From Piedraia hortae CBS 480.64 (taxonomy: Eukaryota): a stretch of DNA of 55,829 bases. Location of the stretch: positions 620,001 to 675,829 of the forward strand of contig MU005958.1 of assembly GCA_010093745.1 (NCBI GenBank), in the 5' to 3' direction. Made by a program: the position numbers and the translations under genes. Under the pieces are notes generated by a model that worked only from the letters and a program-made list of their open reading frames with translations, was not told the origin of the DNA and did not search any database. Shown here one piece after another: positions 3,283 through 13,105 of this stretch (positions within the stretch are counted from its first letter, which is position 1; every line of letters begins with the position of its first letter).

Positions 3283-5307
3283 TGCGTTTGGTCGGGGAGG
3301 TGGAGTGAGGTGAGGTTGAGGTTTGGGATGATGAGTCAGCAGCAATTACTAAGCGAGCTGATGTTCCGATATGGAATGTGTTCATATGTGACGTGGCGAA
3401 TGCGCCCTGCTACTGCAGGCTAGCGGCCTCGGATCGGGTCCCAAGGCCCCATTTGTGCACGGCACCCATAAGTTGCTCTATCGGGGTGAAGATGCTCACC
3501 AACAAGGTGACTTTTTCTTGGTATAAATAGTTCCCAATATGCTCTTCCTTCGCAAAATGGACCTCAAGAGACCCCTGGTCAGTCCTCAAAGCCTACGTGC
3601 CTGGTTTTGCAGTGCAATGGGCTGAATTGAGCCGCATGATAAAACCATTAACAAATCTAACCAGACAGTTGAAAGAGGTGCTTTCGATTGTATCCTATGA
3701 CGATAGTTATGTATCATACATCTTGTCACGACGTGTACTATGCTATCCTTGCAACTGTGTTGTGCCTTACGGAACAGCTAAGTACACTATGGGCTGGAGG
3801 TGAGGTGCCGGGTCACGTGGCTGCGATATGGTTCCTTGACATATGTGCAAGCCCTCTTGCCACTAATTTTAACGCACAAAACTCCAAGGCTAGCTGGACA
3901 ACACCTCATTGATCGAGTTACCGTTAGTTCCCGTTCAATGATATATAGATCGCCCTTTCTGGTAGAGAAATCTAAGCAAGTTTCCCCCACTATCCTGTCT
4001 GGCATTACTCGCTCCTTCCTTGGCCTAGTTTCTCTCAAGGTTCTCATCGTACAGAAATGCCATGCAAAACTCGCATTTTTCATTTTTCTTATTGCAGGGC
4101 GCCACACTGCATTTAAGCGCCGCCCTTCTAGCCTGCTCGAAGGCATTGGCTGGGCGCACAAAGTCCTTATTGAAGGCGCGGGAGACGACGGGCGCGTAGC
4201 TGCTCCCCGGGAGTCGTTCATGTGTTCGACTTGGGATCGAACGTACCCACGACCGAACTGCTAGTACGATTTGTCGCGCGCGGGCGTGCCCTCTCCCTGA
4301 CCGATGACGCCGTCGTATGCCGGATGCTTGTGACGCAGGTGGGCAAGAACGGCACCAACAATCTGGTTCTCATTCTACGAGTCCCGGAGCTGGTGCTGTT
4401 TTCGCTTCATATGTTGGGCCGCTTCCAGGGCAATGGTATTTAACATTCTGGGTAGACTTGCTGTTGTTTTGCTCGCAGAGAGTCTGGTGAACTTGCAAAT
4501 CCTCGTTGGGACCATTGAAGATTTAAAGAGTGTGAGAGATGTGAACAAGGGATACCGCGAGATGGGATAAGTGTCGCGGGATTATTTTATCCTCCGCCAT
4601 TCTCACCACTGGTTTTCTGACGCAGCAAAGGACACGATACAGTGCTCCGTATAAGATATTCGATCTTGTCCATTGCTGGGACGTGGGGCCTGCAGGCGGT
4701 AAGTAGGAGTAAACTTGCAGCTTTGGCTTTTCATTGGCTGAGCTTCGCTGCCCATTTGGTTCTTGTGGTAGTCCCTTGTTATTTGCTAAAATAGAGGTTG
4801 AAATGACGGCGGTGGCGGCGGCTGCAACAACGGTGAAGAGCGGTGCGCTATTCGTGACGCAGTGGAGGCACGGGAGAGGGAACAAGCGTTTGCGAGGACG
4901 TGGCGGGAAATGCAAAACGTAAGACGAGAACGACGGGTGATTACAATTGGTGAATTAGAATGATGATAAGAATGTGTGTGTCTGTCGGAATGCGCGTCAT
5001 GAGTGACGGCACTACGGAGCGGCTGCCGCAGTGGAGCTCAACACATCCAGAGCGCAATAACACTGATTGAATTCCACATCGGTGTGTTTCCGCAGGTGAG
5101 CCAAGATGACGCAAGTACTACGTTAGACACGTGACCCAAACATCTGCACACACACACACATAATGTACGTGTGATGTTACGATAAAGTGTACCGTACAAA
5201 ATTAAATGTAACTCAGCGCATTGAAATTGAAAAATTACTTCTTTTGAGTTGTACCGGAACTTTATATCCATAGACGTAAAATGAAAAACAACCACAACAA
5301 AACAAAT

Positions 5308-8586: not shown

Positions 8587-11500
8587 TTACCTCTTCTTCG
8601 CCGCCGATTCTTTAATACAAGTTCCATTTACTTTCGTCCCGAAGACGAGTGAAGAGCGGGATTCGTTCCAGTGCGCCTGTAAGGGACTGAGATGGAGGAG
8701 CATTAGAGTCCGGCTCGATTTGCCATTTGTGGTTCCCCCTAGTGAAGATTGGAGGAGGTAAGTTAACTGTTTTACAATCGTTAGCAGGACGATTGACATA
8801 GGGGTTTGGGGGGGGGGGGGTTTGTAAGGGTAGACTGGTAGGGGTGGAAGTAGCTGCTCTCTGACAGCACAGGCTGTCAGGCAAGATCACCTGCTCCGAG
8901 GGTAGTAGGCGAGCGAGCAGCCTACCCACCTCCAGAATGATAGCCCCAGGGTAGTCCACCCACCCCATATTATCTGATAACAACCCCCCCCCCCCCCCCC
9001 CCCTCCTTCTCCACCCCTCCGAAGAGAGACTCACCTTCGAATTCCTATAAGGAACATGCTCCTCTCCCCTCCTCGCCGCCAGGGAGGCAATAACATCGCC
9101 CAGCGCAGAAAGACTCTTATTAATCGCAGCCGTTTCCTTAGCACGGGTTCCTTCCGCGCCCGACTGTTTAAGTCGTTCGCTTCCTGCAAGATCCACAAGA
9201 TTAAGAACCCCTTCTGAACGTTCCTCCGAGGCGTCACACGTCCCCTTAAGCGTAAGCATGAAAATCGAGTGCGAGCGTGACGAGCGCTCATTCGCCTTCG
9301 TAGCCGCGACGCGACGGTTCTTGTTTGCTGTTTCCAGGAGGGAGGATATAGCTGTTTGGGTGTACTCTTCATCACCCTTCCCGTCTTCAGACGGAGGATT
9401 TTTCGGTGGCCAAAGCAGGATGGTCGTCAAACCCGTAACCGTCGTCCTGCCGGTGATGGGGTCGTGTTTGATTTCATGTTTTTCTTTTTTCTTATCGTCA
9501 TCTTGCCATGTGCGTGCATCACCCAGTAGGTCGTTCAATGTCTCGTTATAGACTTCCGCAAAGGAGGCAGAGACTTCGTATTCCCACCCTTTGAGACGCA
9601 GACGGACCATTTCATTGAGGAGGAGGTCGATTGAGCTAGGGATGATGCCGTGGGGACCGGACATGCCGTACGTTTTTCCACTGCCGGTCTGGCCGTAGGA
9701 CAGAATGGTAACGTTGTAGCCGTCCACCACGCTCTGGATGAGGTCGCGGCAGTTTTCAAAGACTTCGGTGTTGTTGCTTTGTGGGCCGAAGACGTGGTCG
9801 AATGTGTAGGCGTGTTTTTCGTTGCGAGATTTGCCTGTCGCGGAGAGGGTGGTGGGTGCGTGTACGACCATTTCTTTGTTGCCGTCGAGAGCATCGGAGT
9901 CGGGGTATTCGATTTTTGAGGCTTCGGATTCGCCAGGAAGGAGGGGCCTCGTGCGAGCAAAGACGCGAATGTTGCCTCGTAGTTCGAGGATTGTGGCGTT
10001 GAGTTTCCGGCGGAGGGCTTCCTCTTTGCGGAGGGTTTCGAGGGTGGATTCTTTGATGGATTCGGCTTCTTCTAGACGCTGACGCATAGAAGTGAATTTC
10101 TGGCTTTGTGCCTCTTGGTTGCCTTCGAGGAAGTGGGTCTTGGAGATGAGAGAGGATTTCTCCTGTTCGAGACGGGCATTCAGCTGTTCAGACTCGACGA
10201 GACGCGCACGCAGGCTTGCTGCACTGGCGTTTGCGAGTTCGTTTGCCTGCTGTAGACGGAGGATGGTGTTGCGGAGTTCCTGCACTTCTGTTGCGGACTC
10301 AGATGCGCGGCTTTCACCGGCAGATTGGAGTTCGGAGATCTCCTTCTGAAGGGCCTCCTTTTCACCTTCGAGAAGGACGCGGATGTCCCGGATTTCGGCG
10401 GCATGTTCTGCGGTCAGTTGGGAGACGAGAGCATCTCGCTGCTTTTGGAACTCCTGCTTTGCCGCGTCCATTTCTCTTTCGAATCGGTCAGCATCACGCT
10501 CTCGCTCTCGGGTAACATTATGAACTTCTCGCTCCCACTTGCGTTCAACCTCTGCAACTTCGCTGGCGCGTCTCCGTTCGGCTTCCTGTAAGTCTCTCTC
10601 GTAATCGCGTCGTAGGAGCTTCAAGTCAGAAGCAATGGTGTGCAGCTCTGCTCGGGTTCGATCGAGATCAGAGGTGAGATTTTTGTTAGCAGATTTCAGC
10701 TCTTTATTGAGTTGGGCGTAGTCGTCCGCTGCTCAAGTCAGCCTGTGTAGCCAGTTGAAAGCTCTGCCAAACCTACCCTGCTGTTTGTGGATATGGATAG
10801 ACTCCTCGAGGGTGGATTTGGAGCCTTCGAATTGGTTCCGGAGCTGGACGTACATGAGCTCCATGTCTTGGAGACGACCCTTAGTGTCCCATGCTGGAAT
10901 AGGTGTAAGCGCTTCCTTTGTTAAAAATACGGGGGTGCTTTTGGGAACGCGTCTGGATGTGTGCGGAGTGCGAGGAGGGAGAGACTCCTTGGGGGCAGGA
11001 GTACGGGGGGGTTGTTGATTCCCGTTGTTGAGAACGGGAATCTTGCTGGGCCTCTTTTCCGGAGAAAAACGAGGCATGGTATTGCCCGACTCAAGATTGA
11101 GCCGGGAAAAGGCGTCTGTGACGAAATCGCTGCTTGTTTGGGTAACAGATGACAGCCCCGAGTCTGAGTCACGGCTGGCGTCATCTGCCAAGGGCAAACA
11201 GCCTTCACTGCGAACGCGCTGATGGGGGTCAGGCTGTTGAATCCTGCCGCCCACAGTCGCGGAAAACGTGCGACGAATGCATTGCTTGTAAACAAAGGTG
11301 GATATGTCCGTACCTTTTCTCTTGCTCATGATGGCCATTTCGGCCTCTTCGTCGGTCGAAGCAGTCGTGTCGGTTGTGCTCGGCGGCCGGACATGGCGCG
11401 AAAAGGGGGCGCGATTCGAGGCGCGTACGCCGACAGGGTTCGAGGCAGTCGCATGTTTGGCGTTGCGGGCGCTTATCTGGGAGATGCTCATCGGCCTCAC

Positions 11501-11806
11501 CGACGGAGTCTGGTTCCGCGCCGGTTCGCCCGCCCGCTCCGCCAGCGTCTTGCGCTTGGGCTGCGAGTCTTGCACTGCGTCCATCAGCTGCTGCCTGGTG
11601 CCATCCTGGGGCTGCTTACACCCGGGTATCTTGTGCTTGCTCGGAATGACAGGTGGCGGACCCATGAGGCCCGCGCCATTGGCGGCGAGGTTGCGCGCAT
11701 TGAGATCGCTCTGACTGGTCTCTGCCAGAGTACGGCTCGGGGCTGGCAGCTTGGACGGCTTGATCCCAGGCTTGCGGAGGTCGGGGCGCGTTGGCGATCG
11801 GTCCAT
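8587..11806 (-). CDS. KAR3: Kinesin-14 C-terminal motor (KAR3/KlpA type)
   Basis: Neck ELRGNIRVFAR, P-loop GQTGSGKT, switch I NERSSRSH, switch II DLAGSE, HVPYRNSK/LTYLLQ. Introns at 11575-11619, 10894-11313 (in-frame candidate), 10729-10776 and 8767-9034; TAA at 8587-8589. Confidence 0.95.
8821..8983 (-). ncRNA. Candidate structured intronic RNA in the last kinesin-14 intron
   Basis: Nested stems, one closing with a G-U pair only on the transcribed strand. AGAUAA (H-box-like) and ACA+3 nt are present, and the region is bracketed by complementary G20/C13 runs. Confidence 0.35.
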
Positions 11807-12019
11807 GCTGATCGTTCCTGGTTAGTCAGAGTCCCACCCGTTGTCCATGCGCATTCAACAGTCAAGTGTCGCCGATGTTTGGTCCCGTAAACAGCATGGC
11901 CCAGACAGGAAAAGCGTCACGACGGACCGCGCGCTGCCCTGGCAACGAGTGACACCTCGGCCCGAGCCGGTGTCAAACGGGTTGATCTTCGTCATCGCAC
12001 GTGTCGAGTTGGAAGATCA

Positions 12020-13105
12020 ATGGAAAAGTATGGGCAGTACAGAGACAAGGGTGGGCTTTTGCATCATTGAAAAATCCCCATGTTGACTATATCCTCAGGC
12101 TCCGGTATTGCGCCCTTTTTCCCAATCTCCGCCCCCGAAACCCGAGCGATTCTCTTCCCATGGCGCATTTTCCTGTTCAGCATGCGAATACCGGTGTTGA
12201 TATTCTCCTGGCTCGTCTGGCTGGCCGTTATCCAATGGCTACCAGCGGGGAGCGCACTTCGAAAAGCCAACCAGTGGTGTCTCCTCGGCATTCCCGGTGT
12301 TTGGTGGACTGACATCCAAGTCGACGGCGTCCGACGCGGTTCTCTATCCCAAGGCCCTCGAGGCCGCCTCCCCCATCCTGGAACAATCATCGCATGTTCA
12401 TGGACAAGTCCACTCGACATTCTCTACCTCGCCGCCATCTGGGACCCAATCTTCACCCTAAGCACACCCAGCAGCAAACTCGTCCGTCCCGTCTCTCAAG
12501 AAACCATGCTAGCAGCCTGCTTCTGCGTCACCAACCCTCTCGAATTCGGCGCACCACAAGAATACATTGAACTCGACAAACTAGTCAAAACGAACCCTCG
12601 AAGGGTAATTGTCGTCTTCCCCGAAGCAACAACAAGCAACGGACGAGCCATCCTCCGTCTCTCCCCTTCCCTCTTATCATCCGGAAGCAACACCAAAATC
12701 TTCCCTATATCCCTCCGCTTCTCCCCAACGGACATCGTCACGCCAGTCCCCGGCTGGATCGAAGCCCTCCGCTTCATCTGGAAGCTGAACACGGGCCAGA
12801 CCCATCTCGTCCGGGTCCGAATCGGAGGGTCACGTACCCTCTCCCAACTCTTCCACCAAATTCACGAAGAAAATCGTCCGGCAATCACCCCTCGCAAAAG
12901 CAGCTACGACAGCAACTATTTCGATCGTTTCTCTGACGAGTCTCTCCACGTCGGCGAGGATAGTCTCACACCCGAAGAACACAAAGTTTTGGGGAGTATA
13001 GCAGACGATATGGCCCGTCTGGGTCGAGTCACACGCGTGGGACTAGGAGTGTCTGAGAAGAAGAAATTCGTGGAGGCGTGGCAGAGGAGGATAAAACGTA
13101 GTTAG
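12020..13105 (+). CDS. LOA1: Lysophosphatidic acid acyltransferase LOA1/VPS66
   Basis: Spliced N-terminus MEKYGQYRDK/GSGIAPFFP (intron 12051-12098); TSPLDILYL and VFPEATTSNGRAIL acyltransferase motifs. Confidence 0.88.

Follow-up and report, generated by a model that had tools for sequence, protein, structure and literature searches.

We analysed a window of 55,829 nucleotides (nt) of Piedraia hortae CBS 480.64 DNA (assembly GCA_010093745.1, contig MU005958.1, forward-strand positions 620,001 to 675,829); all positions below are those of the window. On the minus strand, the window carries a gene for a kinesin-14 motor protein of the KlpA/Kar3/KIFC1 type. Within this gene, a 420-nt stretch of open reading frame (ORF) is bordered by splice signals, and RNA was found both with and without it. 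In our judgement, the segment is very likely a conserved and functional exitron, i.e., a coding stretch that can also be removed by the spliceosome, and the gene probably gives rise to two motors, one long and one short.

The gene model was built from the genomic sequence, the public P. hortae CBS 480.64 protein model (P0002) and RNA contigs (Table 1). The products comprise 952 amino acids (aa) with the exitron kept and 812 aa with the exitron removed, each with a single terminal stop. The N-terminus encoded by exon 1, MDRSPTRPDLRKPGIKPSKLP, aligns with MERPSSQLENVRPSGLKPPSRLP of the orthologues, and the product of exons 1 and 2 matches the orthologues from its residue 1 onwards. Intron 1 had been described as in frame and stop-free, which it is; the RNA contigs show it removed, giving IPG/L (slashes within sequences mark splice junctions), which matches KIPGLPE in the orthologues. 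Exon 3, preceded by the G of position 10894 in the retained form or of position 11314 in the spliced form, begins with AWDTKGRLQDME (10859-10894).

A Pfam search of P0002 (724 aa) returned the Kinesin domain (PF00225, residues 359-712, E 3.6e-88) and Microtub_bd (PF16796, a kinesin-14-type neck region, residues 333-502, E 2.8e-45), and no Pfam family was found in the 342-aa tail. The closest relatives are named klpA, KIFC1 or "nuclear fusion protein" by their sources. We assign the product to kinesin-14 from its C-terminal motor placed after the neck, the disordered tail followed by a stalk, and the orthology indicated by these names.

P0002 corresponds to the last 724 residues of the retained form. 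It begins at a methionine within the exitron (MPRFSPEKR...), leaving out 228 N-terminal residues (11078-11806 region). The public model looks truncated, because the missing residues are expressed, spliced and homologous to the N-termini of the orthologues. Among the orthologue models, that of Oleoguttula mirabilis (P0003) reads through the homologous intron 1 (IPGCK...), and the Acrodontium model (P0005) does so for intron 3. Lengths given for this gene in databases are therefore unreliable.

Table 1. Features of the P. hortae kinesin-14 locus, listed in the direction of transcription.
Feature	Position	Strand	Description
Kinesin-14 gene	8587..11806	-	Five exons plus the exitron
Exon 1	11620..11806	-	ATG at 11806; covered by an RNA contig
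SKLP (SxLP) motif, exon 1	11744-11755	-	PSRLP or PSRIP in relatives
Intron 1	11575..11619	-	45 nt, GTAAGC..CAG, in frame, stop-free; joint 11574 to 11620
Exon 2	11314..11574	-	Last codons K162 R163 K164 (11315-11323) and first base of the Gly codon (11314)
5' splice site AAG/GTACGG	11308..11316	-	GT from the Gly codon GGT; the next codon, ACG, is Thr
Exitron	10894..11313	-	420 nt, phase 1, 140 stop-free codons; insert predicted to be disordered
DFVTDAFS motif	11105..11128	-	S-L-x-T-A-F-x-x-L-S-L in orthologues; sole predicted helix in the insert
SKIP motif	11036..11047	-	Context EKRPSKIPVL; candidate EB1 site
3' splice region	10894..10930	-	TTTTTAAC in F-L-T codons, GCTTAC, pyrimidine run, CCAG/
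Exon 3	10777..10893	-	Stalk helix begins here; W306 to L312 invariant in the orthologue alignment
Intron 3	10729..10776	-	48 nt, GTAGGT..CAG, TGA inside; joint 10728 to 10777
Exon 4	9035..10728	-	Coiled-coil stalk and most of the motor domain
Intron 4	8767..9034	-	268 nt, GTGAGT..ACAG; placed by the junction YRNSK/LTYLLQ in P0002
Exon 5	8587..8766	-	End of the motor domain and stop codon

The splice signals of the 420-nt segment are where the original prediction had placed them. The donor reads AAAG/GTACGG, with the first intron base at 11313, and the acceptor reads CCAG/, with the last intron base at 10894. The branch-like TTTTAAC occupies 10920-10926, which places the branch A 27 nt upstream of the intron's 3' end. 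The segment amounts to 140 codons with zero stops, and its removal gives a product reading ...MSKRK-A-WDTKGRLQDME. The 140 residues of the insert include 17 Ser, 18 Pro, 14 Thr and 13 Arg; the predicted SKIP is present, and the several Ser/Thr-Pro (S/T-P) sites were counted as five. The segment had also been singled out for its length. It is indeed far longer than the 45- and 48-nt introns, but the same gene has the 268-nt intron 4, so that the segment is not distinguished by its length alone.

RNA evidence was taken from the Logan contigs of one public run over positions 10600-11900; each contig carries one k-mer depth, and rare variants are dropped. The run's label, "RNA?", is a guess, and we called the run cDNA-derived from its joints: the contigs skip exactly 45, 420 and 48 nt, each time with GT..AG ends in the orientation of the gene. 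The spliced joint 10893 to 11314, which skips the 420 nt, lies in a 58-nt contig of depth 104.3, with 28 nt on the shorter side. An unspliced 478-nt contig spans 10866-11343 at a depth of 16.8, in contig data that cannot separate mature mRNA, pre-mRNA and DNA. Both RNA forms exist in the P. hortae library, the spliced one being about six-fold deeper in this run. The original prediction had proposed weighing the joint against retained coverage, and the contigs of the run hold the joint alongside the unspliced form. The joints of introns 1 and 3 had depths of 334.7 and 183.3, respectively; no unspliced contigs were seen for these two introns in the run, which is uninformative on DNA carry-over.

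We also observed that the RNA contig of exons 1 and 2 runs 2.3 kilobases past 11900, across a divergent neighbouring ORF (~12071-13105, plus strand). Probably, the transcript ends of the kinesin and its neighbour overlap, or the assembler merged both. Since the contig extends into the neighbouring gene, the depth of 334.7 is not a measure of kinesin mRNA.

The spliced architecture also appears among protein models of other fungi. Thirteen protein models from four fungal classes are free of the insert, and 11 of them join at KRK/AW or its local equivalent. The exact junction is used in Zymoseptoria tritici ST99CH_3D7 (GKRK/AWDTKG), Polychaeton citri, Viridothelium virens, Neofusicoccum parvum, Neodothiora populina, Xylona heveae, Lasallia pustulata and Erysiphe necator (SKRE/EWDV); Podosphaera aphanis, a relative of the last species, retains the insert. 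Junctions close by are used in Cercospora zeae-maydis (SRKG/GWDT) and Cladonia borealis (KRKVI/AW, six bases off). Moreover, three insert-free proteins from Logan contigs (P0033, P0052 and P0349) continue uninterrupted where introns 3 and 4 would lie, and one of them (P0033) has 791 aa on a 2693-nt contig, with no room for introns. We take these three to be cDNA-like evidence, coming from other organisms.

Other models depart from this pattern. Sordariomycete-like proteins (P0139 and similar) have lost K-R-K and keep x-G-T or x-G-M at the homologous place, and in the Onygenales, Emmonsia crescens (937 aa) retains KRKGM...insert...AWD. The Botrytis proteins (P0382/P0384; protein only) have RRKPM for KRKG[TM] and AFDV for AWDT, so that in Botrytis the donor may have been lost and the insert may be constitutive. 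Botrytis porri (1003 aa) and B. sinoallii (843 aa) differ in length for a reason that lies outside this junction. In Phyllosticta, the alternative models (715 and 800 aa) join at other places, so they were not counted as spliced forms.

Relatives were gathered by a tail search and a profile search, and 60 tails were aligned. The insert is present in 47 of them and absent from five; five models start inside or after the insert, and three are outgroups. In the 47, it measures about 110-190 or more residues and lies between the invariant K-R-K-G and A-W-D-T-K-G-R-L. The columns KRKG, A-F..L, P-S-x-I-P and T..P are invariant in two alignments; in more distant loci, T-P-S is invariant and I-P nearly so (variants QLP, YTT and QSS). 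In the DFVTDAFS region, A232, F233 and L236 are invariant, and AlphaFold predicts a helix at residues 227-234. AlphaFold was run on the tail alignment and gave a predicted local distance difference test score (pLDDT) of 36-52 across the insert, below 50 in the SKIP region and low in the tail; a confident helix begins at residue 308, right after W306. With disorder giving way to a helix at this point, the insert sits at a predicted hinge between the disordered tail and the stalk.

A metagenome scan with the tail-only alignment yielded 80 loci with DNA, of which 47 carry the insert and 21 have a contiguous motif; the remaining 12 do not extend over this site. The original prediction looked to orthologues for conservation of the splice sites, the open frame and SxIP, and all three were found: GT and AG are present in 47/47 insert-bearing loci, the insert is in frame and stop-free in 45/47, at lengths of 336-714 nt, and SxIP is conserved. 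By named-protein matches, these loci include Friedmanniomyces endolithicus (L006, 100%), Aureobasidium pullulans (L027, 98%), Cladosporium-like and other Mycosphaerellales-like lineages, the Lecanoromycetes Pleopsidium flavum-like (L036, 89%) and Alectoria-like (L065, 57%), and a Helotiales-like lineage (L077, 48%). The sequences indicate that the insert has been kept open and coding in Dothideomycetes, Lecanoromycetes and a Leotiomycete-like lineage.

The ratio of nonsynonymous to synonymous substitution rates (dN/dS) was computed by the Nei-Gojobori method for 19 pairs and could be estimated for the insert in 16. It ranges from 0.20 to 0.52 in the insert, against 0.12-0.34 in the upstream tail exon; examples for the insert are 0.34 (L007/L008), 0.23 (L020/L027) and 0.25 (L025/L031). 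These values argue that the insert is translated and selected as protein, and they point to purifying selection on it, which would not be expected of a plain intron.

A rival reading is that of an ordinary constitutive intron that is open by chance. The unspliced contig would then be pre-mRNA or DNA, and the long models would be annotation read-through. The six-fold greater depth of the spliced joint and the 13 models without the insert would fit this, as would the habit of ab initio callers of reading through open introns, seen for intron 1 in P0003 and intron 3 in P0005. However, in 45 of 47 loci of widely differing length the insert is in frame and free of stops, which a plain intron would not be; the dN/dS of such an intron would not be expected at 0.20-0.52 at synonymous divergence up to saturation, and the invariance of P-S-x-I-P and A-F..L in the two alignments, and of T-P-S in the distant loci, would be hard to explain. 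We consider this reading very improbable.

A side observation concerns the synonymous divergence (pS), for which estimates in both the insert and the upstream tail exon were obtained in 10 pairs; in 9 of these, the insert has the lower value (e.g., 0.39 vs 0.57, 0.38 vs 0.60 and 0.36 vs 0.55; the pairs include L003/L007, L004/L011, L020/L027 and L025/L031). This hints at an extra, RNA-level constraint along the exitron.

The splice sites were compared in 28 distinct inserts (<97% identical), from 27 metagenome lineages and the window. In 28/28, the GT comes from a Gly codon that reads GGT, whereas GGT makes up 124 of 553 Gly codons (22%) in the same frames. The following codon is ACR, ATG, ATA, AAA or AGG, so that the intron starts with GTA in every case, and donor position +5 is a purine throughout (G in 19, A in 9). 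At the other end, the codon before Ala ends in A in all 28 (CCA in 19, GCA in 3, AAA in 2, ATA in 2, ACA in 1 and GTA in 1), against a background of 1016 third-position A in 3601 codons of four-fold families (28%). All insert lengths (336-714 nt) are multiples of three. Some variation was observed at the donor: the L049 group has T/GTAGGC three codons further on, with a 462-nt open insert, and the motif on this side reads RQGM, KRKGK or KRKGR in L037, L038 and L042-46.

All but one of the 28 inserts have, 11-41 nt ahead of the AG, a box that resembles a branch point. Boxes of the TCTAAC type stand 12-22 nt upstream in 15, in most of which TCTAAC, ACTAAC or TCTAAT is spelled by D-S-N or E-T-N codons. 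In the Mycosphaerellales-like group, NCTTAC is spelled by L-T codons, and YTRAC is spelled by F-L-T codons (TTT TTG/TTA/CTG/CTA ACN), the window's own box included. The 3' splice region is thus dual-coding with the peptide VFLTKEALTPIP. We infer that F-L-T-[KR]-[DE]-S-N-T..P-A is conserved partly as branch point, pyrimidine tract and AG. Taken at the level of codons, the comparison argues that splicing itself is selected and that the segment is not a plain exon.

The same comparison bears on the reverse reading, that the segment is an ordinary exon and the 420-nt gap in the RNA is splicing noise or a library-specific reverse-transcription artefact. The gap was seen in a single run, and the contig that holds the joint is short (58 nt, with 28 nt on its shorter side). 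Nevertheless, the joint has canonical GT..AG and belongs to the deeper form, the synonymous positions that yield GT and AG are invariant in 28/28, and the identical junction recurs in 11 of the 13 insert-free models and cDNA-like contigs of other species. We regard the ordinary exon as highly improbable, more so than the plain intron.

The insert interrupts a motif that is contiguous elsewhere. K-R-x-A-W-D-x-K-G is uninterrupted outside Pezizomycotina, in chytrids, Mucoromycota, Taphrinomycotina and animals, and in the 21 metagenome loci mentioned above. Among fungi it was seen in Saitoella (KAKRPAWDTKGRLEDME), Basidiobolus, Allomyces, Pneumocystis, Spizellomyces, Sorochytrium, Cladochytrium and Jimgerdemannia. 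Among animals it was seen in KIFC1 of Branchiostoma (GKKRPAWDLKGRIEDME) and Palaemon and in the "carboxy-terminal kinesin 2" of Babylonia and Armadillidium; the contiguous tail motif that the original prediction gave for animal KIFC1 was thereby found in Branchiostoma and Palaemon orthologues (human KIFC1 was not among them). The spliced K-R-K-A-W-D-T-K-G of P. hortae has the same length as the ancestral K-R-P-A-W-D-x-K-G. The insert is the derived state, and splicing restores the ancestral junction. Because the insert is absent outside Pezizomycotina and splicing recreates the ancestral junction, an origin as an intron or insertion that later became coding seems the simpler history.

The SKIP of the insert fits the [ST]-x-[IL]-P signature of EB1 ligands, and the stretch around it is, as for such ligands, disordered, basic and rich in Ser and Pro. 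A further motif of this type, SKLP in exon 1, is conserved from Dothideomycetes to Lecanoromycete-like loci and is common to both isoforms. In consequence, splicing would change the number of SxIP-type motifs from two to one, and not from one to none, and the choice would affect avidity rather than presence.

From these elements we propose the following mechanism. The exitron (10894-11313) allows two in-frame mRNAs, from which both proteins would be made. In the short form, ...SKRK would be joined to AWDTKGRL..., recreating the ancestral tail-stalk junction. The long form would carry 140 extra residues at this junction, predicted to be disordered, with the SxIP motif and the five S/T-P sites, and would gain a second candidate docking site for EB1 (Bim1/Mal3-type) beside phosphorylation sites. 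The ratio of the isoforms would then set the strength of motor loading on growing microtubule plus ends. The original prediction of two motors produced by regulated intron retention thus stands in part: the exitron with its two RNA forms, the SxIP motif and the splitting of a motif contiguous elsewhere were all found. Its account of the balance needs revising, since the major form in the one run is spliced and not retained, and the SxIP count would fall from two to one.

A real and conserved exitron could also yield a fixed, unregulated mixture. Weak, constrained signals (GTACGG and a non-consensus branch point) would leave a constant minority of transcripts retained, and both proteins would be tolerated. 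The donor is unlike the others of the gene (GTAAGC, GTAGGT and GTGAGT), the coding constraint squeezes the splice signals, and one condition was sampled, all of which suit such a mixture. Against mere tolerance, the purifying selection on the insert and the fixed synonymous splice sites indicate that both outcomes matter. Selection on both outcomes does not demand regulation, and it is only in this respect that the fixed mixture differs from the favoured view. We consider it possible, although somewhat unlikely.

Several points weigh against a functional exitron that yields two motors. The RNA data come from a single run with contig-level depths only, and the isoform ratio is known from that run, in a single condition. 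The unspliced contig could be pre-mRNA or carried-over DNA instead of exported mRNA; the lack of unspliced contigs for the two short introns is no argument against such an origin. Two of the 47 insert-bearing metagenome loci keep GT..AG in an insert that is not open: L010 (about 3620-4208) has a 588-nt in-frame insert with one in-frame stop, and the insert of L015 (on a contig of 1873 nt) is frameshifted, at 544 nt. Either the assemblies are wrong here, or a full-length motor comes from the spliced form alone in these lineages. The named short models may partly be ab initio predictions that found GT..AG. The 28 inserts are related, so 28/28 does not represent 28 independent trials; synonymous divergence between groups is near saturation (pS 0.6-0.8), and unconstrained third positions should have randomised despite this kinship. 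With a second SxLP/SxIP motif in exon 1, the functional difference between the isoforms may be small. Finally, the two proteins are deduced from RNA and sequence, and EB1 binding from the motif. On balance, we still favour a conserved exitron with two products.

Comparison with known systems is based on the parts of the cited sources that were available. Exitrons of Arabidopsis and human (Marquez et al. 2015, via the review PMC5602073) are described there as being predominantly retained, and are thought to be ancestral exons that gained splice sites. The P. hortae segment resembles them in lying within a coding exon, with GT..AG, a length that is a multiple of three, no stop and the frame kept, and in that the encoded region is disordered and contains a short linear motif as well as phosphorylation-type sites. 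It differs from the typical exitrons described in that source, as splicing predominates in the one run, the insert is derived, so that its history would run in the opposite direction, and it spans several fungal classes.

In the sections seen of a study of Schizosaccharomyces pombe Klp2 (PMC3510020), the tail has two SxIP motifs through which Mal3/EB1 is bound and the motor is loaded onto plus ends, and this binding is blocked by nearby phosphorylation (Sid2). Like Klp2 as described there, the P. hortae protein is a kinesin-14 with two SxIP-type motifs near Ser/Thr in a disordered N-terminal tail, and two motifs in the tail make an effect on avidity plausible. Whereas Klp2 is, in that account, controlled by phosphorylation of a single protein, the P. 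hortae motif would be added or removed at the RNA level. In budding yeast, according to the text seen of PMC8872730, Cik1 bears the SxIP for Kar3.

The Aspergillus nidulans KlpA belongs to the orthologous motor family, and its N-terminal tail acts as a directionality switch, as stated in the available text of PMC5216134, where the protein studied has 770 aa. The insert lies between tail and stalk, where geometry would decide whether tail and motor share a microtubule. The 770 aa are near the short architecture (812 aa); Aspergillus proteins were absent from our search matches. It is a speculation by analogy with that source that a tether changed by 140 residues could matter for the tail-dependent switch of direction.

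We must also note a feature of intron 4. It contains a run of ~19 G and a run of ~13 C (RNA strand), ~160 nt apart, within an inverted repeat (8800-8822 / 8982-9004) that is complementary over 13-23 nt. From their sequence, these runs could pair, which would loop out most of the intron and bring its splice sites together.

Exitrons, and SxIP motifs in kinesin-14 tails, are already known. The P. hortae case is unusual in its deep conservation, in the codon-by-codon overlap of coding and splice signals, and in a spliced product that equals the ancestral form. A fungal parallel is S. cerevisiae PTC7, which has an intron that is in frame and free of stops and that, when retained, gives a second functional isoform; compared with the kinesin-14 exitron, it involves a different gene, a short intron and a narrower taxonomic range. 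A full-text search, supplements aside, found no paper on an exitron in a fungal kinesin or on alternative splicing of klpA, and none of the matches listed was a paper on a fungal exitron by title or abstract.

For the evolution of splicing, the locus would represent a rare, deeply conserved fungal exitron in which constraints on coding and on splice signals overlap. In practical terms, the truncated public P. hortae model starts inside the exitron, and it is because of the exitron that public models of this gene differ between species (~800 vs ~1000 aa). In its widest form, the proposal would be that the exitron is common to all Pezizomycotina and dates back hundreds of millions of years, having arisen as an insertion or intron inside the ancestral opisthokont K-R-x-A-W-D-x-K-G motif and become coding afterwards, with dual coding at its 3' end. 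Its splice choice would toggle a second, phospho-regulated EB1 site at the tail-stalk hinge, tuning plus-end loading and perhaps a KlpA-like direction switch, and the 770-aa KlpA on which all biophysical work was done would be the short isoform only. We hold this whole picture tentatively and think it rather doubtful in its entirety. The tails of kinesin-14 motors decide where the motor acts and, in KlpA, in which direction it walks. If the reading is true, a hidden second isoform with 110-240 additional residues at the tail-stalk junction, an EB1-type motif among them, would alter the interpretation of experiments with fungal kinesin-14.

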